NCBI GenBank assembly: GCA_003252515.1
Contig: QKDR01000143.1
Span: 1-49,568 of the forward strand
DNA length: 49,568 nucleotides
Source of the DNA: Candidatus Delongbacteria bacterium
GTDB taxonomy: Bacteria; UBA4055
Reading direction: 5' to 3'
The notes beneath the pieces are model-generated. The model did no database searches. It was not told the DNA's origin and was given only the letters and a program-made list of their open reading frames with translations. Both the position numbers and the translations under genes were made by a program. Positions 512 through 17,527 of the stretch are shown piece after piece; position 1 is the first letter of the stretch, and every line of letters begins with the position of its first letter.

Positions 512-2197
512 ATGAAAATAGTAGAATGCGTACCTAATTTCAGCGAAGGCAGAAATATGGCTGTAATTGATCAGATAACTGACGAGATCAAAAAAATTAA
601 AGGAGTAAAACTGCTTGATGTGGATCCCGGTTTTGATACTAACAGAACTGTGGTAACGTTCGTCGGTGATCCTGAAAGTGTAAAAGAGGCAGCGTTCAAT
701 GCTGTAAAAAAATCACATCAGCTGATAGATATGACCAAACACAAAGGTGCTCATCCCAGATTCGGCGCCTGTGATGTCTGCCCGATCATCCCGGTAAGCG
801 GTATTTCTATGGATGAGTGTGTTACTATTGCCAGGGATCTGGGGAAAAAACTGGGTAAAGAACTTGATTATCCGGTTTATTTTTACGAATATGCAGCCAC
901 AAAGAAAGAAAGAAAGAACCTCGCATGGGTCAGACAGGGTGAGTATGAGGAACTTGAATCCAACCTGAAGCAGGCAGACAGAGTTCCGGATGCCGGTCCC
1001 TGTAAGTTTCAACCGAAAGTTGGCGCAACTGCTGTCAGCGCTAGAGATTTTCTTATCGCCTACAATGTAAACCTGAATACGAAAAACGCAAAACTTGCAC
1101 ACGACATAGCTTTGAACATAAGAGAACAGGGCCGATTCCTTAAAGATGAAAATGATAAATTCGTAAAAGACAAAGAAGGAAATAAAGTCAAACAGCCAGG
1201 TATTTTTAAGAACTGCAAGGCTATCGGATGGTATGTTGACGATTATAAAAGAGCTCAGATCTCGATCAATCTGACAAATTTTCATATTACATCAATGCAC
1301 GATGTTTTCGATGAAATTTCCAGACAAGCCACAGAAAAAGGATTAAGAGTTACGGGAAGCGAGATAGTAGGAGTTGTTCCGAAAGAAGCGATGATAAAAG
1401 CCGGAATTCACTATCTTGAGAAACAGGGATCATGCGCCGGAGTTGACGACAGCGAGCTGATCAAGATCGCTGTTCAGTCCCTGGGATTGTCAGATGTCGC
1501 AGAGTTCAGAACCGATGAAAAGATTATTGAGTACATGATAACATCCGAAGGAAAACTTGCAGATCTGACAGTATCCGGTTTCTGCGACATGCTTTCTTCT
1601 GATGCACCGGCTCCGGGCGGGGGATCAGTAGCGGCCCTATGCGGTACTCTTGCAGCGAGCCTGGGGGCGATGGTAATGAACCTGACATACGGGAAAAAAG
1701 GATACAGGCAATTCGACGATGAGGTGAACGTACTGGGGAAAGAACTTCAGCTGCGTAAATCCGAACTGCTGTATCTGATAGATGCCGACACTGAAGCTTT
1801 CAATGTCCTAATGGACGCTTTAAGCGCTAAATCAAAGGCTAAAAGCTCTGATGATGAAATAGAACTCAAAGAAGCTGAAAAGAAATATTACGATGCTACA
1901 GTTCTTGCAACTGAAGTCCCGCTTAAGGTCATGTCGAAGATAATTGAATTGGCCGCACCTTTGAAAAGAATCGCCGAGATAGGCAATGTAAACGCCGCCA
2001 GCGACGCTGGGGTCGCTGCATTACTCATCCAGTCGGGAGTAAAAAGTGCAGGGCTTAATGTCAAGATCAATCTGTCGGGATTCGACAGCTCGGATGAGTA
2101 TAAAAACGTAACTCTTAAAAAAATGAACGACATACTTTCTTCAGTTGACAGTCTTACTCAGAGTATATTAGAAATAGTAGACAGCAAGATCAAATGA
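512..2197 (+). CDS. ftcd: Glutamate formimidoyltransferase / formimidoyltetrahydrofolate cyclodeaminase (bifunctional)
   Basis: N-terminal VECVPNFSEGR and HKGAHPRFGACDVCP (transferase); C-terminal SDAPAPGGGSVAAL and GNVNAASDAGVA (cyclodeaminase). Confidence 0.95.
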   Translation: MKIVECVPNFSEGRNMAVIDQITDEIKKIKGVKLLDVDPGFDTNRTVVTFVGDPESVKEAAFNAVKKSHQLIDMTKHKGAHPRFGACDVCPIIPVSGISMDECVTIARDLGKKLGKELDYPVYFYEYAATKKERKNLAWVRQGEYEELESNLKQADRVPDAGPCKFQPKVGATAVSARDFLIAYNVNLNTKNAKLAHDIALNIREQGRFLKDENDKFVKDKEGNKVKQPGIFKNCKAIGWYVDDYKRAQISINLTNFHITSMHDVFDEISRQATEKGLRVTGSEIVGVVPKEAMIKAGIHYLEKQGSCAGVDDSELIKIAVQSLGLSDVAEFRTDEKIIEYMITSEGKLADLTVSGFCDMLSSDAPAPGGGSVAALCGTLAASLGAMVMNLTYGKKGYRQFDDEVNVLGKELQLRKSELLYLIDADTEAFNVLMDALSAKSKAKSSDDEIELKEAEKKYYDATVLATEVPLKVMSKIIELAAPLKRIAEIGNVNAASDAGVAALLIQSGVKSAGLNVKINLSGFDSSDEYKNVTLKKMNDILSSVDSLTQSILEIVDSKIK

Positions 2198-2217: not shown

Positions 2218-2246
2218 AAAAAAGGAGATCGTGAGATCTCCTTTTT
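2218..2246. terminator. Bidirectional intrinsic terminator between convergent ftcd and the dnaE-like gene
   Basis: AAAAAA-GGAGATC-gtga-GATCTCC-TTTTT. Confidence 0.85.
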
Positions 2247-5226
2247 ATTTTATACCAATATAAAAGGGGACCTCTTTTAAAAGAAATTTCAACTTATACA
2301 AATTCAATTCATTCAGGTCTATTTTACCATTAAGTCCCAGCGCCTGTTTTGTATCAGAGAAATAAAGTTCCAATGAACAGTTCCCTTTATCAGAGATAAA
2401 CTTAGAGATCCCGTCGACAATACTGTTATCTTCGCTTTCGATTGATGCGTAGAGTATAAAATGATGGTTTTCATAAATATTTTCTATTCCGTGCCCTACA
2501 CGACCGGATCCGGGTTTCAAGAAACTGCAGAGTTCACATATTTCAGCTTCGGAAGAAGTAAATACAAGCCCTGTGAATTCGTCCTCAAAGTTCTTCTTTT
2601 CTTCTACGGTAAAATCCGTGGCGGAATCAACAGATATTTCGATTTCTGATATTTCGAAAAGCTCATTCTGGAGAGTATCTTCTTTTTTTATAGATTTATA
2701 ATACTTGTCGTTCATTTCGGACAATTCTTTCCGGTTTCTGTTAAAAATATCGAAGAACCCTATCTTTACAAGAATATCTATAGTGTTATGCCTTATTAAG
2801 TTCTTGTCGCATTTTTCTATGAAGTCCTGAAATGACATAGGCTCGTACTCATTAATGAAATCGAATAAATAATCCGAAATTTTCTGTGATATCCCTTTTA
2901 CACAGTAAAGAGGCAGAATAACATTCTTATCTTTTATTTCAGCTTCTTTATTCAGGCTGAGAAGTGATATCTTAATGAATTTGTAACCTGAATCTTTAAG
3001 GAATTTTATATATTTTCTCCATTCGCCGCCTGATCTTACTTCCTTTTCAAAAATGAATTTAACAAAACGGTCCGGATACTTTTCTTTCAATTCCAGAATT
3101 CTTAACGCTATCACTGTTTTAGCGGCGATCTCTGACAGAGAAAGGTAAAAAACGGTCGGTTGAACGGCTGCTCTTATATATTCACACTTCTCAGTACAGT
3201 TTTTGTTCTCTGATAACAGATTAAGTATAGAATTGAACTGGATCAGACTTGTTGATTCAAGTAGTCTTCTTTTCAATGAAAGGGTTTCTTTTGATGAGAA
3301 TAGTTTGTCGCAGATATAATAGAACTGCTCTTTGAAGACAATGAATCCCCGGGTGATCTGGAGCTCTTTTTTATACCTGATGCCCGGGGCCCCCGGAGAT
3401 TGCCTGTTCAAAAGAAAACTGAGATTGGATCTCCCGGACTCAAGATAAATTATCAGGTTGCAGAATGGATCTTTGCTCAGTTCAAGATATTTTTCTCTCA
3501 TATGGCTGTAGCTGAAATACGGTATCATCGCAAGATCATCTGAAATAATCTTTTCTGTCAGCTTCTCAGAAATCTTATTAAGGCTGGTCTCTACGAGAGG
3601 TCCCAGTTCAAAGTGCCTTCTGAGATCCAGGTAGCCGTTGGACTCGATATTTATATTCCATACTCCGAAATATCTCGCTGTACTCATGTTATAAAATGAA
3701 ACATCCAGCGGCATTTCATCGGATCTGGATGTTACAGGCAGTATAGTTTTAACGTCTTCACCACTTATTACTATCTGATTCGTATTCGTATTATAATTTC
3801 TGAAAACATCATCAAAATTTACAGCTACTTTAAGTATCTCTTTCTGGTCGGGATATTTTTCAAAAAGATCTTTAACTTCCTTGCTGTTCAGGATTTCCTC
3901 AAGCTGACCAGTCGATCTAAAATTCTGTTTATAATTCCTGAGAAGTATTTCAGACAGTTCTTTACTAAGCCCGTATTCAGATGTTAAAGTATTAATAATA
4001 GCCGTAAAGTGCCATTTCACATAATCGCTCAGAAAACAAATCCTGTCTGCAGGAAATTTACCGGCCAGATATTCGAATAGCTTATGACGGCTTTCCGGAG
4101 ATACAATAACAGTGATCTGAGGGTGGATCTTCTTGTTCGCCAGAACAGATCTGTGATAGTGATTTGAAGTGAAAACAGGTGTGGAAAGAGAAAGTCCGAA
4201 CAAATATGCAAGATGCAGGTCACTGATAAAACCCGAGAAGAAAATATCACGAGCGTAAATATTATAGAATTCCTTTTTTGCTTCGAGCATGAACAGAATA
4301 AGCGAAGATATATTATGTTTTCTAATATAAGCGAGCTCTTCAGTTATTAATGATTTCAGGACATCACTTTTGTCGTCAAACAGCAATTTCGTTTCAGCTT
4401 TAAGTGTTTCAAAACTCGAATAGTCGATCTTCCATTTAATATTAAGATCAGGATATTTAACAGGGACTTCTTCGAGAATGAAATGACATGACTTAGCTAT
4501 TTCAGACACATTTTCTACAGTTTTGTGATCGAAAATACTGTTTAAGTTTTCAACATTCTGTAAAAATTGATCCCGGTAATGCCTGATCTGCTTCGTTCCT
4601 GAAAATCTCGAAGCCATTTCTTTAAGTTTATGGTCACCTTCATTCAGATAATAAACAGGATTACATCCTAAAAGACGGATCCTGCCGGCTGAACTCATAA
4701 ATGACAGTTTTTCAGAAATCAGATTACTTTCAGATTCCTTCTCAGAATTGCATACAAAATATAAATCATTGATATCAATTCCTGTTACGGTTATTCTTTT
4801 CAGGATATATTCAGGATCATCTTCAGTTTCAACACTTTCTGAAAGAATATCTATTTTATACAGATTGATACAAATAAAACAATCGTGCAGAACTGAGATA
4901 TCGTCAACCAGACAGTAGCAGTATTTTTTATCATATCTGAATTTACGGACCAGATCAAGAACACTTTTATAACCGGAATAGTTTTTTATCAGCAAAGATA
5001 TCCTGAAGTATTTATCATTTTCGAGCCTGCAGAAGAAATCTGTACCAATTATAGGTTTGATGCCGAAATCAAGACATTTTGTATAGAACTCCGCTATACC
5101 TGAGAAATTACCATGGTCAGTCATCCCGAGAAATTTGACGCCTTTGCTCCTAGCATTGGTAACAAGGTCATCGAATTTTATCGTTCCTTCCGGTTTTGTA
5201 TACTGGCTGTATATTATAAGCGACAT
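2245..5226 (-). CDS. Highly divergent DNA polymerase III alpha (DnaE) paralog, predicted catalytically inactive
   Basis: PHP N-terminus (LGMTDHGNFSG...GIKPIIGTDF), TRGFIVFKEQ, LKEKYPDRF, HhH LYCVKGIS and clamp motif QNELF occur in DnaE order. The GRGS, PDxDxD and KxDxLG motifs are replaced. Confidence 0.85.
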   Translation of the reverse strand: MSLIIYSQYTKPEGTIKFDDLVTNARSKGVKFLGMTDHGNFSGIAEFYTKCLDFGIKPIIGTDFFCRLENDKYFRISLLIKNYSGYKSVLDLVRKFRYDKKYCYCLVDDISVLHDCFICINLYKIDILSESVETEDDPEYILKRITVTGIDINDLYFVCNSEKESESNLISEKLSFMSSAGRIRLLGCNPVYYLNEGDHKLKEMASRFSGTKQIRHYRDQFLQNVENLNSIFDHKTVENVSEIAKSCHFILEEVPVKYPDLNIKWKIDYSSFETLKAETKLLFDDKSDVLKSLITEELAYIRKHNISSLILFMLEAKKEFYNIYARDIFFSGFISDLHLAYLFGLSLSTPVFTSNHYHRSVLANKKIHPQITVIVSPESRHKLFEYLAGKFPADRICFLSDYVKWHFTAIINTLTSEYGLSKELSEILLRNYKQNFRSTGQLEEILNSKEVKDLFEKYPDQKEILKVAVNFDDVFRNYNTNTNQIVISGEDVKTILPVTSRSDEMPLDVSFYNMSTARYFGVWNINIESNGYLDLRRHFELGPLVETSLNKISEKLTEKIISDDLAMIPYFSYSHMREKYLELSKDPFCNLIIYLESGRSNLSFLLNRQSPGAPGIRYKKELQITRGFIVFKEQFYYICDKLFSSKETLSLKRRLLESTSLIQFNSILNLLSENKNCTEKCEYIRAAVQPTVFYLSLSEIAAKTVIALRILELKEKYPDRFVKFIFEKEVRSGGEWRKYIKFLKDSGYKFIKISLLSLNKEAEIKDKNVILPLYCVKGISQKISDYLFDFINEYEPMSFQDFIEKCDKNLIRHNTIDILVKIGFFDIFNRNRKELSEMNDKYYKSIKKEDTLQNELFEISEIEISVDSATDFTVEEKKNFEDEFTGLVFTSSEAEICELCSFLKPGSGRVGHGIENIYENHHFILYASIESEDNSIVDGISKFISDKGNCSLELYFSDTKQALGLNGKIDLNELNLYKLKFLLKEVPFYIGIK

Positions 5227-5229
5227 CCT

Positions 5230-5853
5230 CTAGATCACCTCGAATTTCTTTTTAATGATCTCAACAGTTTCTTTATCTGAAGATCTTAGTATTCTTATTT
5301 TTTGTATATCACAATATAACTCTACGATCGTAGAGGACTTACTGCCTCCCGTTTTACCTCTGTATATATGGTCAACAGATTTGTCCCATCTTGAAATTAT
5401 CATTTCGATATCATTAAGATCGGGTTCGCCGGAAATATTAACGCTGGTACTTATTATACCTGTTCCCAATGCCATTGTGATATCACGTACTACACCAAAA
5501 TCCGTATATCTTACTGCAACTTTTTTATAATCTGATAAGAACTTGTATCCTGAAGAAGGATTTTTATCCGAAACAACAGTAATTCTGCCGGGCCACAACT
5601 CTTCTTTCAGCAGGTATTCCGTGAATGAAATCAAGAAATCGTTAAAATCAAAATACAGTTTCAGTCTTTCGGGAGATGAATCAAGTATTATAAACGGTTT
5701 CTGATCTCTTTTTTTTAGTTCCTGAAGCCTTTTGACTGCATCTTTATTGCGGGGGTCGCACGAGAGTCCAAAAATGGTATCGGTAGGTATAATTACTATA
5801 CCTCCGTTCTTAATGGTCTGAATTGCGGTATGAAGCTCATTTTTGTCTTTCAT
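5230..5853 (-). CDS. tsaC: L-threonylcarbamoyladenylate synthase (Sua5/YrdC/TsaC family)
   Basis: GGIVIIPTDTIFGL, KKR...KP, WPG, STSVNISG, SSTIV motifs. Confidence 0.9.
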   Translation of the reverse strand: MKDKNELHTAIQTIKNGGIVIIPTDTIFGLSCDPRNKDAVKRLQELKKRDQKPFIILDSSPERLKLYFDFNDFLISFTEYLLKEELWPGRITVVSDKNPSSGYKFLSDYKKVAVRYTDFGVVRDITMALGTGIISTSVNISGEPDLNDIEMIISRWDKSVDHIYRGKTGGSKSSTIVELYCDIQKIRILRSSDKETVEIIKKKFEVI

Positions 5854-5895: not shown

Positions 5896-6429
5896 TTAAA
5901 TATCGTAACCTATACCTTTAAGCCAGTTACCTACTTTCTGCCTTACTTCTTCATGATAATAATTATCCCACCTTTCCTTGTCGCCGATATGTTTGACAAG
6001 AACTTCCTCGATCTCTTCCAGTGATGCGATATTTGCAATTGATGTATTTATTGTTACTTTAAGGTCCTCGTTAAACCCGTCTATAGAATTCATGTACTTT
6101 TCTATTATTTTTTTCACTTCCATGATAGTGATCGTCGGGATGGGTTCGTAATCATCCTGCTTAATGAACCTTATCCTTTTAATGAGTTCTTTTTCATCTA
6201 CTTCTTCATTTGGTGAATAAATTTTTTCATGGTACATATCATCGTCTTCCGAATCGTTACTCCACTCCTCTAAGGCTGTCAGCTGCTGCTCATAATCATC
6301 TTCTACGCTCGATGCGATATTTTCGTCAATGTAGACGATCTCGCCGGTTTCTTTGTTGAGATAATAAGTTATATCTTCCGCTTTCTCATGCATCGCCCGG
6401 ATGATTTCATCAATATCTAGATCTACCAT
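5896..6429 (-). CDS. UPF0158-like acidic protein of unknown function
   Basis: YYLNKETGEIVYI near the N-terminus and W..Y...VR....WL...G at the C-terminus, typical of UPF0158. Confidence 0.7.
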   Translation of the reverse strand: MVDLDIDEIIRAMHEKAEDITYYLNKETGEIVYIDENIASSVEDDYEQQLTALEEWSNDSEDDDMYHEKIYSPNEEVDEKELIKRIRFIKQDDYEPIPTITIMEVKKIIEKYMNSIDGFNEDLKVTINTSIANIASLEEIEEVLVKHIGDKERWDNYYHEEVRQKVGNWLKGIGYDI

Positions 6430-6537: not shown

Positions 6538-8874
6538 TCACTGAAGGGGATAACCTACAGACAGAAAAATTCTGTTGTTTTTATTGATAATCCCATTGCC
6601 TGCCGTAATACCGAACCCGGCTTCTATAGGCGCAAGTTTAGTATTAAATATGATCCCTGTATAGAACGAATTCAAAAATCTTCTGTAGTTCCATTTAATT
6701 TCCGGTTCATCAAACCAGAACGCGTTCAGGTAATATGCTGCAGAAAAATACAGATCAAATAGCGCCGAATCTTTTATAAGAAGATCGTAACGGTTCTTTA
6801 TTCTAAAATACTGAATTACCGAATACTCCTCAAAAGAAGTTCCGGGGATAGTTTTTATCCCGCCGATCAGATATCTTTCATTAAATGGGACAAGATTATC
6901 GCCCGTACCTCCCGACACACCAAGTTCCACATTTAATTTTCTGAAAATATTTTTATATCCGGACAATTCCCACCATGTTTTCTGGAATTTCATCAGATCA
7001 TCGAAATCATACATGCCGGTTTCAATATTCCATGAGAAATAAACGCCTTTGCTCGGTACGACATTATCGTTCCTGCTGTCCGCCAGGATCCTGAATATTC
7101 CGGACGTTCTCTCATTCGAGCTTGCACCGTTGTCTATGAATTCCTGTATGATCGTAAACATCCCCTGATAATTGTCGAAAATCTGGAACCCCAGATTTAG
7201 ACCGGCTCCATATCTTTCTTCTTCATATCTGAGGTCATATAGCTGTTCATGATCCGTATCGTAAAAATTTCTTTCTTTGATCTGATAGTACGGCATTACT
7301 TCAAAAAAAAGAGTTGATCTTTTCATGAAAGGATTATAGTGAGAGATCTCAATTCTGTTAAAACTTTCACCGAAAGTAATACCAGCATAAATTTCTGCTC
7401 TTTTGCCGTAAACATTTTTATTGGCAACCTCAACGAGTCCGAGAAAACCTCTGTCTGTCTGATAATTTGCCCCTAATCTTATCAAGTGATACGGTTTTTC
7501 TTCAACGATGAAAGTTAATTCACATTTTTCCCGGTCCAATTCATAATTTACTTTATGAAAAAGTCCGGTACTATACAGATTATCTACCGAATTCTCCAAG
7601 TCATTAATATTTAAAGGTTTTTCAGTTGATACAGTAAGTTCTTCTCTAATGAATTTTTTTCTAGTGGAAGTATCACCCGTAATTCTTATACTTTTCAGAC
7701 TGCCTTCCTTAATCAATAAAGTATCAGGTTCACCCTCAATATATGACACATCACAAAGCATATATCCTTGATTTCTATAAAATTTTCTCACTGCGGCAAC
7801 AGCTTCCCTATCGTTCAGAATGCCGTTCAATTCTTTTATTATTTCATCTTTATCAAAAGAGCTGACGCCTGTGATTTGTGGAAGATGATCTATATTTGAT
7901 ATTATTTTTTGAGACTTATGCTCTTCATCTCCTACCAGCTTTCTTATCTCAGCGATCTTTTTATCTGTCTCAATATATCCGAGTCGTATCAGTGAATCAG
8001 GATCATTAAGTTCGGTTACCGAAACATCTTCAACATCCGGTCGTAATACAATGCCGGCGTTTTCCAGACTTTTCTCAATATTGGATTTTGTCATCAGAAT
8101 TGATATCCTGTCTAAAAGCTCAATAAAATTATATTCTCTGGATTTGTATGGAGAATCATGAGTTGTATTCGATGCAATGACCACATCGCATTCATCAAGT
8201 ACGCTTACAGGTATATTATCTGTCAACCCTCCGTCAAGCAGCATCATATCTTTATATCGAACAGGCTTAAAAAGACCGGGGAACGACATTGAACCGAGAA
8301 TAATCAGAGGCAGATCCCCGTTTCTGAATACCACTTTCGAAGAATTCTGAATGTCGGAACAAACAATTCTGAGCTTGTATTTCAATTTATCAAAATCATT
8401 GCTGCAGTATTCAGAACTGTTCACAAATGATCTGATTTTCTTTAAAACCTTGTGCCCGTTATTCAAAGCATTCGGCAGCTGGATCCCGGATTCAGTGAGT
8501 TCGAGCTCAACTACTGTTCTGTCCGATGTTTTCTTAATATAATTCTCGGTCATATTCCTGTCGGGTTTATTAGTAAAGACCTCCTGACTGTCGGATTCTT
8601 TTATCATCTTCTCGATCTGATATGTATTATAGCCCAGGCAGTACAAACCGGCTATCATTGCTCCCATGCTTGATCCGGATATCATATAAGGTTCAATACC
8701 TTCTTCTTCCAATCTTCTGAGCACACCAATATGAGCAAAACCTCTTACGCCTCCGCCTGACAGAGCTATCCCGATCTTAGGATATTCCTGAGAATTTACT
8801 TCAACTTCATCCGGAACTGACGAATATAGCAAATTAATTAAGGTCAGTAATATTAAAACAATTATTCTGAACAT
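6538..8874 (-). CDS. Patatin-like phospholipase fused to POTRA and Omp85-type beta-barrel (PlpD-like)
   Basis: Signal peptide; LSGGGVRGFAHIGVL, GSSMG (GxSxG), DGG; POTRA-like segment (IRITG...LYSTGLF...VEEK); C-terminal IFLSVGYPLQ barrel strand. Confidence 0.88.
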   Translation of the reverse strand: MFRIIVLILLTLINLLYSSVPDEVEVNSQEYPKIGIALSGGGVRGFAHIGVLRRLEEEGIEPYMISGSSMGAMIAGLYCLGYNTYQIEKMIKESDSQEVFTNKPDRNMTENYIKKTSDRTVVELELTESGIQLPNALNNGHKVLKKIRSFVNSSEYCSNDFDKLKYKLRIVCSDIQNSSKVVFRNGDLPLIILGSMSFPGLFKPVRYKDMMLLDGGLTDNIPVSVLDECDVVIASNTTHDSPYKSREYNFIELLDRISILMTKSNIEKSLENAGIVLRPDVEDVSVTELNDPDSLIRLGYIETDKKIAEIRKLVGDEEHKSQKIISNIDHLPQITGVSSFDKDEIIKELNGILNDREAVAAVRKFYRNQGYMLCDVSYIEGEPDTLLIKEGSLKSIRITGDTSTRKKFIREELTVSTEKPLNINDLENSVDNLYSTGLFHKVNYELDREKCELTFIVEEKPYHLIRLGANYQTDRGFLGLVEVANKNVYGKRAEIYAGITFGESFNRIEISHYNPFMKRSTLFFEVMPYYQIKERNFYDTDHEQLYDLRYEEERYGAGLNLGFQIFDNYQGMFTIIQEFIDNGASSNERTSGIFRILADSRNDNVVPSKGVYFSWNIETGMYDFDDLMKFQKTWWELSGYKNIFRKLNVELGVSGGTGDNLVPFNERYLIGGIKTIPGTSFEEYSVIQYFRIKNRYDLLIKDSALFDLYFSAAYYLNAFWFDEPEIKWNYRRFLNSFYTGIIFNTKLAPIEAGFGITAGNGIINKNNRIFLSVGYPLQ

Positions 8875-17454: not shown

Positions 17455-17527
17455 GCTCCCGTAGCTCAGTGGATAGAGCAGTGGTTTCCTAAACCATTGG
17501 TCGGAGGTTCAACTCCTCTCGGGAGTA
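17455..17527 (+). tRNA. tRNA-Arg (anticodon CCT), CCA not encoded
   Basis: Cloverleaf: acceptor GCTCCCG/CGGGAGT, D arm GCTC/GAGC, anticodon arm GTGGT-TTCCTAA-ACCAT, T arm GGAGG-TTCAACT-CCTCT. Confidence 0.96.

Follow-up and report, generated by a model that had tools for sequence, protein, structure and literature searches.

The window analyzed here is a stretch of 49,568 nucleotides (contig QKDR01000143.1 of assembly GCA_003252515.1) from a genome of the phylum Candidatus Delongbacteria, a name taken from the record titles. The genome (G000 below) is 2.52 Mb in length, is spread over 183 contigs, and is 95.9% complete; the phylum is represented by 16 species genomes from seven genera. On the minus strand, at positions 2245–5226, the window carries a gene that codes for a 993-residue paralog of DnaE, the alpha subunit of DNA polymerase III (Pol III alpha), without an internal stop codon. 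The protein has a complete but very divergent C-family polymerase fold, and computed alignments indicate that both of its active sites, one in the polymerase palm and one in the PHP domain, have been lost. An earlier, sequence-only reading of this stretch had described an uninterrupted 993-residue open reading frame collinear with DnaE. The coordinates of that frame were exact, and a profile alignment with hhalign between a 26-member family of the paralog and 12 canonical DnaEs extends over 861 columns with a probability of 100 (E value 8.5e-53). The parts of the gene are as follows, with approximate domain borders that were set by offset from those of Escherichia coli DnaE.

2245..5226, minus strand: whole open reading frame of the paralog, 993 residues, with its stop codon at 2245–2247
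4492..5226, minus strand: PHP domain with a degenerate metal site, residues ~1–245, from Pfam and alignments
4024..4491, minus strand: first part of the palm, residues ~246–401, with FFSGF (329–333) instead of GPGRGS and YHRSVLANKK (357–366) instead of FERFLNPxR
4105..4122, minus strand: former catalytic strand PQITVI, aligned to PDIDID, residues 369–374
3787..4023, minus strand: thumb, residues ~402–480
3634..3786, minus strand: second part of the palm, residues ~481–531, with NTNQ (481–484) instead of HAAG
3640..3660, minus strand: strand WNINIES, which carries N526, residues 523–529
2977..3633, minus strand: fingers, residues ~532–750
2683..2976, minus strand: tandem helix-hairpin-helix (HhH) or beta-binding domain, residues ~751–848, with an HHH_6 match at 760–835 (31.8 bits)
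2656..2670, minus strand: QNELF, candidate motif for binding the beta clamp, within a disordered linker, residues 853–857
2248..2628, minus strand: C-terminal domain with a beta-alpha-beta-beta-alpha-beta core, residues 867–993

The fold was identified by several independent routes. Pfam matches above the gathering cut-off were obtained for PHP (65.6 bits, residues 7–101) and DNA_pol3_alpha (29.3 bits, residues 334–516), as well as for HHH_6. A structural model was predicted with AlphaFold from the 26-sequence family alignment (predicted local distance difference test [pLDDT] 82.5, predicted template modeling score 0.72), and its closest solved structures in Foldseek are Pol III alpha of Taq, E. 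coli, and Mycobacterium tuberculosis. The match to the Taq structure 2hpi has an E value of 8.6e-38, and the match to the E. coli structure 2hnh covers 938 columns at 16% identity with template modeling scores of 0.64/0.69. Sequence identity to canonical DnaE is 17%–19%, and all NCBIfam DnaE models score far under their cut-offs. The highest score is that of NF004226 (143.4 bits, cut-off 1002); TIGR00594 gives 131.1 bits (cut-off 434.35) and the DnaE2 model 66.3 bits (cut-off 939). No alternative assignment was obtained from any of the family libraries scanned. Within the fingers, TRGFIVFKEQ (residues 625–634) is common to the paralog and the canonical TYGxxVYQEQ, and FYLSLSE stands in the place of YGFNKSH.

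The palm of C-family polymerases is a nucleotidyltransferase of the Pol-beta-like type and needs three aspartates. In the hhalign family profile, D415, D417, and D569 of the genome's canonical DnaE correspond to Q370, T372, and N526 of the paralog, and a HMMER comparison with PDB sequences aligned PQITVI to PDIDTD of Taq. Residues at these columns were counted in the 26 members of the family. Column 370 is occupied by Q (11), L (9), V (5), or I (1); column 372 by T (16), S (6), N (3), or I (1); and column 526 by N (25) or Q (1). Aspartate and glutamate are absent from all three columns in all 26 members and in two divergent members from genomes G001 and G002 (21%–22% identity), which upheld the claim of the sequence-only reading that the catalytic aspartates are lost. 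Position 370 is L, V, or I in 15 of the 26 members, which is incompatible with metal binding. Both of the former catalytic segments are predicted to form beta-strands (E370–375 and E523–529), like those of the canonical palm.

The losses extend to the remaining motifs, and each replacement listed by the sequence-only reading from a by-eye alignment was recovered in the computed ones. In the PHP domain, HLHxHS has become SLIIYS (read by eye as HxH to IIYS) and TNDxHY has become CNPVYY (residues 188–193). In the polymerase core, GPGRGSxxGSLxxY is replaced by FFSGFISDLHLAY (residues 329–341), PDIDID by PQITVI at the residues and nucleotides listed above, HAxxVxI by NTNQIVI (481–487), KxDFLGx by NINIESN (524–530, with the third aspartate becoming N526), and YxFNKSH by FYLSLSE (693–699). 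The segments that replace GPGRGS, HAAG, and YGFNKSH, namely FFSGF (within FSGFISDL), NTNQ, and FYLSLSE, are conserved in the family. Because the same replacements are fixed throughout, the pattern is not due to chance.

The PHP site was compared with a nine-residue metal signature, which section 14 of a recent survey gives as HHDHEH[C/H]DH (PMC12926913). At these nine positions the paralog has I4, Y6, E13, H38, D63, R75, Y123, P190, and Y192. Only H38 is identical (one of nine), and two of the other positions are swaps of D to E and of E to D. As judged from the alignments, neither the polymerase site nor the PHP site appears able to form its canonical metal center, and with three aspartates established as a requirement, the protein probably has no polymerase activity. 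An enzyme that still polymerizes DNA with non-canonical catalytic residues is highly improbable. It would account for the retention of the fold, the HhH domain, and the clamp motif, and it could draw on E528, which shares a strand face with the third aspartate that was lost, and on D336 in the former GS loop. Against this, the DxD strand is without a carboxylate in 26 of 26 members, with a hydrophobic first position in 15; the triphosphate-binding GRGS, the HAAG, and the finger YGFNKSH are all replaced; and a score of 143 bits compares with an equivalog cut-off of 1002.

The sequence-only reading had treated the gene as a paralog, and a canonical dnaE was indeed found elsewhere in the genome, on a separate contig (G000:C152, 1248.5 bits on TIGR00594). 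This copy passes two equivalog cut-offs (1346.7 vs 1260 and 1325.9 vs 1002) and has all motifs intact. A canonical DnaE above cut-off is present in all 16 genomes of the phylum. Nine of these were extracted, and all nine have intact PHP motifs (HLHNHS..LDG, TDH, IIGxE, and NDxHY) together with PDIDID and KMDFLG. The genome also codes for DnaN, DnaX, a delta-prime-like protein, and three DnaQ-type exonuclease domains, which leaves no obvious gap for the paralog to fill. A search for Y-family polymerases with PF00817 gave no matches in the genome (95.9% complete). Genome G003 (82% complete, 5% contamination) has, besides its canonical copy, an extra DnaE-type frame of 1038 residues (G003:C187:10259-13006) that scores 486.7 bits on TIGR00594, or 526.8 bits with neighbors in frame; this frame could represent either contamination or a paralog of the DnaE2 type.

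Whole-genome searches identified the paralog in 15 of the 16 genomes and in all seven genera. Twelve of the 15 frames are intact and full-length, at ~1000 codons, and the remaining three (in G008, G003, and G013) are interrupted by contig ends, with the G008 copy split across two of them. The sixteenth genome, G007 (91% complete), lacks the paralog together with both flanking genes, which indicates that the block is unassembled there; true loss of the paralog from G007 was rejected for the same reason.

Further members were sought among 5.8 billion proteins with a word-indexed search, which gave 26 relatives with 28%–61% identity; canonical DnaEs came next at ~20%. The relatives are 978–1063 residues long, except for one fragment of 547 residues, and their source labels include [quoted passage not shown] (five records), "Clostridiales bacterium" (one record), and "DNA polymerase III subunit alpha" (four JGI records). 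When 185,579 species, each represented by one genome, were scanned from a pattern seed, 14 loci were obtained, 13 of which are family members, all in metagenome-assembled genomes (MAGs) of this lineage; the fourteenth is a weak match to PHP only. In a profile search of 1.84 billion representatives the family scored 1122–1537 bits, the G001 and G002 types 271–296 bits, and ordinary DnaEs at most 237 bits, leaving a sharp gap. Another 147 matches from the profile search were screened with regular expressions, and 12 were without a motif. Nine of the 12 are family members or fragments, two are misses of the expression itself (KADFLG and KKDFLG), and the last two outcomes are single proteins, P0136 and P0161, the former with PDINLD. 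P0136 (775 residues) has the second aspartate changed to asparagine, with the third aspartate and GRGS intact; it is possibly a polymerase that has been truncated or inactivated in part. P0161 belongs to a second family that is described below.

The paralog is under purifying selection and is conserved throughout the phylum. Rates of nonsynonymous and synonymous change (dN and dS) were estimated with the NG86 method for 36 genome pairs. Values of dS were defined in six of the 36 pairs for the paralog and in two of the 36 for canonical DnaE, and the only usable pair was G009–G011 (dS 1.0 for the paralog and 0.47 for canonical DnaE); the others are saturated and give a dN ratio only. For this pair the paralog has a dN of 0.100, a dS of 1.017, and a dN/dS ratio (omega) of 0.098, and canonical DnaE has an omega of 0.040. 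Across the 36 pairs, dN of the paralog is 1.1 to 5.3 times that of canonical DnaE and ~2-fold higher in most. The sequence-only reading had supposed that a frame this divergent and still open is kept by selection, and both the ratio in the sole unsaturated pair and the state of the orthologs, 12 of 15 intact and three cut by contig ends rather than fragmented, bear this out. Identity to the G009 ortholog is 61% for the paralog, compared with 80% for FTCD, 91% for UPF0158, 79% for the patatin-Omp85 protein, 53% for TsaC, and 48% for a methyltransferase. The paralog thus falls within the range of its neighbors and is changing at a rate that is ordinary for a functional gene.

Mean column identity of the family alignment is 57%, with many invariant columns. 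Conservation is highest in the PHP domain, and the most conserved 15-residue windows in its core are 8–22 and 36–50 (0.93 each) and 51–65 (0.85). At the former polymerase motifs the top windows are 515–529 (STARYFGVWNINIES, 0.86), 357–371 (0.83), 620–634 (0.81), 328–342 (0.80), and 475–489 (0.78). The least conserved parts are the thumb, which is lowest in the core with one of 79 columns invariant, and the C-terminal domain. E13, H38, D63, R75, and P190 are invariant in all 26 members, and N526 and, two residues after it, E528 are each found in 25 of 26. These patterns bear on the view that the gene is a decaying relic without function, a pseudogene in the making. Such a relic would explain an identity of 17%–19% to DnaE, a dN about twice the canonical value, and in-frame stops in two fragmentary orthologs. 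It is effectively refuted by 12 intact frames in seven genera, an omega of ~0.10, and the 57% mean column identity, and the conserved synteny and a start coupled to a ribosome-binding site likewise argue against it.

A phylogenetic tree of 42 rows was constructed from the matches by a quick search, with Shimodaira–Hasegawa-like approximate likelihood ratio test (SH-aLRT) values as its only support and with PolC and labeled DnaE2 left out. The paralog family is a single clade (SH-aLRT 100) to which the G001 and G002 forms also belong, and its branching broadly follows the tree of canonical DnaEs. Its stem is long, at ~2.7 changes per column, and it lies outside all canonical DnaEs, beside the second dead family (support 95). 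The pairing of the two dead families may be a product of long-branch attraction. The family may have arisen by duplication within the phylum or from an older or foreign source.

The second dead DnaE-like family consists of P0161 and P0186–P0197, which are metagenomic and form 13 clusters of 696–1123 residues that are 30%–35% identical to P0161. All 13 are without the DxD pair and the third palm aspartate, most are without GRGS, and the C-family fold is recognized by Pfam. Unlike the Delongbacteria family, this one is much closer to canonical DnaE: the N-terminal PHP motif HLHTHS is kept, and identity to canonical DnaE is 27%–33% over ~60% of the query. PF01336 is absent from the precomputed Pfam lists of this family. 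It forms a separate clade (SH-aLRT 100). Its existence hints at a wider class that has been overlooked.

Downstream of the core, the paralog retains parts with which alpha docks to its partners. In the alignment, QNELF (853–857) falls exactly on the clamp-binding motif that canonical DnaEs carry internally (QIDMF, SDSLF, and DISLF), and the computation finds it conserved in both sequence and position. In the 26 members the first residue is Q in 20, R in five, and H in one; E is found in 22; and L (L856) and F (F857) are found in all 26. The motif is placed within a predicted disordered linker (pLDDT <50, residues 849–865). Canonical DnaEs of the phylum have W-[DGE]-x-S-L-F at this position, without Q.

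A complex was modeled between a DnaN dimer, with an alignment of 15 sequences from the phylum, and residues 751–993 of the paralog. The model scored 0.61 in three runs, and the best of three controls scored 0.02; in calibration, 58 of 80 solved complexes and two of 110 mismatched pairs attained the mark for this score. Contacts agreed between runs by at least 95%, with a partner pLDDT of 75–76. Modeled contacts join residues 850–857 and 861–866 to DnaN residues 148–154, 171–176, 238–246, 346, and 363–368. QNELF itself is placed by the model in the DnaN cleft, where it is predicted to contact residues 171–176, 241–246, 346, and 363–368. Since the solved structures include many clamp–peptide complexes, this result means that the motif resembles a clamp ligand to the model, perhaps through likeness to those complexes, and does not amount to binding of this copy.

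The HhH domain (HHH_6) is retained above its cut-off. The C-terminal residues 867–993 were also folded alone, with a pLDDT of 73.7 overall and of 83–88 in the core (fragment residues 50–127). When this domain was compared with 48,161 representative chains using VIA-align, the top match was Taq alpha 1127–1201 (Z 4.4, root mean square deviation 2.8 Å over 66 residues), and the third was E. coli alpha 1072–1156 (Z 3.4). The modeled domain thus weakly resembles the tau-binding domain of DnaE, and the position of the best match suggests homology. We read it as a degenerate form of that domain, with the OB fold deleted, on the ground that the top match falls at the corresponding end of a homologous protein; the scores alone would be insufficient. 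No match to the OB fold (PF01336) was found in the paralog, nor is one present in the precomputed Pfam lists of relatives P0002–P0027, and PF01336 is listed for six of 11 canonical DnaEs from the same search. Only ~10 residues separate the clamp motif from the alpha/beta C-terminal domain. An Atlas feature search with the C-terminal region returned OB-containing fragments at 0.87–0.88, below the lead threshold of 0.9.

The gene lies among the following features of the window.

5230..5853, minus strand: TsaC/Sua5/YrdC-type L-threonylcarbamoyladenylate synthase, upstream of the paralog in the same apparent operon (TIGR00057, 124.5 bits, cut-off 123.2)
5227..5241, minus strand: junction with tsaC, comprising GAGGTGA (5235–5241, Shine-Dalgarno-like) and the tsaC stop codon TAG (5230–5232)
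5896..6429, minus strand: UPF0158-family gene, next upstream in the same apparent operon and very conserved
6538–8874, minus strand: gene for a 778-residue protein in which a patatin-like phospholipase is fused to POTRA and Omp85 domains, further upstream (weak PADLOC match, 33.4 bits)
512–2197, plus strand: FTCD gene, convergent with the paralog
2219..2246, strand not assigned: 12-bp hairpin with an A run on one side and a T run on the other, lying where the paralog and FTCD genes converge, terminator-like on both strands by consensus scan only

The ATG of the paralog (at 5226) lies 3 nt past the tsaC stop codon and 8 nt past GAGGTGA, an arrangement that suggests translational coupling to tsaC. 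Gene order is preserved in eight to nine of 11 other loci (tsaC adjacency in eight of 11). Paralogs of the G001 and G002 types have wholly different contexts of housekeeping genes, with genes for an ABC-F protein, a heptosyltransferase, a SurA-type peptidyl-prolyl isomerase, and a subtilase. No conserved neighbor with a role in DNA metabolism was found around the paralog loci. A promoter scan gave 25 sites, compared with 24.5 in shuffled sequence, and no promoter is claimed. Among sequencing runs, a search for carriers of the gene listed DNA runs, which may be the source of this DNA, and no RNA run. UPF0158 is 66%–93% identical in nine of 11 other loci (91%–93% within the genus and 66% at the deepest comparison), compared with 36%–61% for the paralog, and neither NCBIfam nor PADLOC provides an assignment for it. 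G+C content changes from ~0.35–0.37 at 2–26 kb to 0.41–0.49 in the last 23 kb (26000–49568), which could reflect gene class, an island, binning, or an assembly join. A tRNA gene is located at 17455–17527 of the window.

The context also bears on whether the paralog could be part of a mobile element, a phage, or a defense system. There is some material for this view: the neighboring patatin-like gene weakly matches phospholipase effector models in PADLOC (33.4 bits), phages with DnaE-type polymerases exist, and the paralog matches phrog_405 with 149.8 bits. However, that match is no better than those to cellular DnaE models, and none of the paralog, TsaC, and UPF0158 is matched in PADLOC. The phospholipase of the patatin gene is joined to POTRA and Omp85 domains, a fusion of the kind typical for the outer membrane, the flanking housekeeping genes are in conserved order in nine genomes, and the family tree broadly tracks the host DnaE tree. 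No sign of an SOS cassette, a defense island, or a mobile element was seen at the locus, and we regard such an origin as very unlikely.

Taken together, the paralog is an old, selected, and vertically inherited extra copy that exists beside a normal DnaE. Still recognizable in it are the docking parts of alpha, which are the clamp motif and the HhH domain, with the tau-binding domain perhaps a third. The most economical reading is a clamp-docked, non-catalytic, alpha-like scaffold or regulator. We give this a probability of roughly 0.6. The protein would dock on the beta sliding clamp through QxELF and may also dock on DNA by way of the HhH domain and on tau of the clamp loader by way of the C-terminal domain. 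Once docked, it could act as a scaffold or a placeholder, or it could regulate which polymerases gain access to forks or sites of repair. The binding of the clamp in the cell, the binding of tau and DNA, and the cellular role are what we infer, as is the lack of polymerase activity. The sequence-only reading had proposed, as an inference, a function as scaffold, regulator, or decoy, to which the conserved candidate clamp-binding motif adds concrete support.

Several observations weigh against a docked scaffold or regulator. The clamp motif is weaker in divergent members, with NDLF and no Q in the G001 type and QDDL in the G002 type. For the C-terminal domain, no chain in VIA-align reached Z ≥5, so that its match lies under the usual noise level of the aligner, and Foldseek gave no match at E ≤0.001 (the best was 2hpi at 0.27). 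The acidic residues D336 and E528 lie near the old polymerase site, as judged by alignment and strand register only. Two copies contain in-frame stops: in G003 (L017, G003:C329), which is cut by a contig end, there is a TAG five codons before the end, and in G013 (L021:3-329, G013:C305), which runs for 109 residues to a contig end, there is a TAA at codon 20 within an otherwise well-conserved sequence. These stops may be assembly errors or local decay. TsaC, UPF0158, the patatin-Omp85 protein, and FTCD are not replication proteins, so the genomic context gives a role at the replisome no support. Finally, the best-conserved windows are segments of the former active sites, and since their replacement residues are fixed or nearly so, the dead pockets are held in a new state and are not drifting.

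This last point is also the basis of a serious rival, in which the paralog is a repurposed enzyme or ligand sensor. The palm pocket, the PHP cleft, or both would have been rebuilt into a new binding or catalytic site, whose ligand could be, for instance, a nucleotide, the end of a DNA molecule, or one metal ion, and clamp docking would be secondary or absent. The near-invariant polar residues D336, H358, R359, K365, K366, N481, and Q484 cluster in the former motifs, as a rebuilt pocket would predict. The same conserved segments, however, are also the structural core of the PHP barrel and the palm sheet, and their conservation may be structural. In addition, no known catalytic signature has been recreated, a single PHP ligand is identical, and no alternative family assignment was obtained. 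We consider a repurposed pocket unlikely, at odds that still call for attention.

Beyond the reading of the paralog as a clamp-docked scaffold or regulator, it is possible, though we hold this tentatively, that the protein is a true non-catalytic subunit of the replisome in Delongbacteria, where it would occupy the clamp and one arm of tau. In that position it might hold the clamp in reserve, gate the exchange of polymerases, or couple the fork to another process. Under this view, the second dead family suggests that bacteria came to such a solution more than once.

A dead alpha that is kept through the history of a phylum beside a normal DnaE, with a clamp motif near consensus, would show that the replicase fold can be converted into a non-catalytic part. 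QxELF, the HhH domain, and the C-terminal domain provide handles for asking what task the paralog has at the clamp. There is also a consequence for annotation, as the label "DNA polymerase III subunit alpha" on such paralogs would cause polymerase gene content to be miscounted.

As far as the literature could be checked, this is the first inactivated polymerase homolog in the C family. Surveys from 2014 and 2026 divide the bacterial C family into PolC and DnaE1–3 (PMC12926913, PMC3919608). In the parts consulted, the same surveys treat inactive PHP, PolY, PolX, and exonuclease domains and include no C-family group with an inactivated palm; they are based on isolate or complete genomes and so do not cover these MAGs. 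No palm-inactivated C-family polymerase was described in the literature searched, a scope that does not extend to the supplementary group tables of the surveys, and this agrees with the statement of the sequence-only reading that no characterized family C equivalent was known to it.

The paralog resembles DnaE1 (2hnh, 2hpi, and 7pu7) in domain order, fold, the position of the internal clamp motif, and the HhH domain, and its C-terminal domain is probably homologous, with weak similarity. Its best NCBIfam matches are models of the DnaE1 type. Unlike DnaE1, it is without the three palm aspartates, GRGS, HAAG, YGFNKSH, eight of the nine PHP ligands, and a detectable OB fold, and it is ~170 residues shorter. 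DnaE2 (ImuC) is described as an accessory second C-family paralog that has a reduced C-terminal architecture and, usually, an inactive PHP site (PMC3919608, PMC12926913). In contrast to the paralog, DnaE2 keeps its polymerase active site and is a catalytic subunit.

Proteins that lost catalysis offer further parallels. According to the portions of the literature consulted, ImuB is a homolog of polymerases that has no catalytic residues, retains a beta-clamp motif, and is thought to be a clamp-bound adaptor (PMC6511836, PMC11791113, PMC12926913). ImuB belongs to the Y family and is located in a damage-inducible cassette with ImuA and DnaE2, unlike the paralog, which has no ImuA-ImuB-DnaE2-type cassette beside it and no Y-family gene in its genome. 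It is nevertheless the closest functional analogy to the paralog. Inactivated full-size polymerase folds that selection retains for structural or other roles have also been reported, in the sources as consulted, for the C-terminal half of eukaryotic Pol epsilon and archaeal PolBs in the B family and, in the X family, for prokaryotic PolX proteins that lack polymerase activity (PMC2669801, PMC4104785, PMC9226535, PMC12926913). These B and X proteins are of other families, and noncanonical PolXs keep an active PHP exonuclease, whereas the PHP domain of the paralog is degenerate too. If the paralog were a true replisome subunit, it would be a bacterial C-family counterpart of the inactive half of Pol epsilon.

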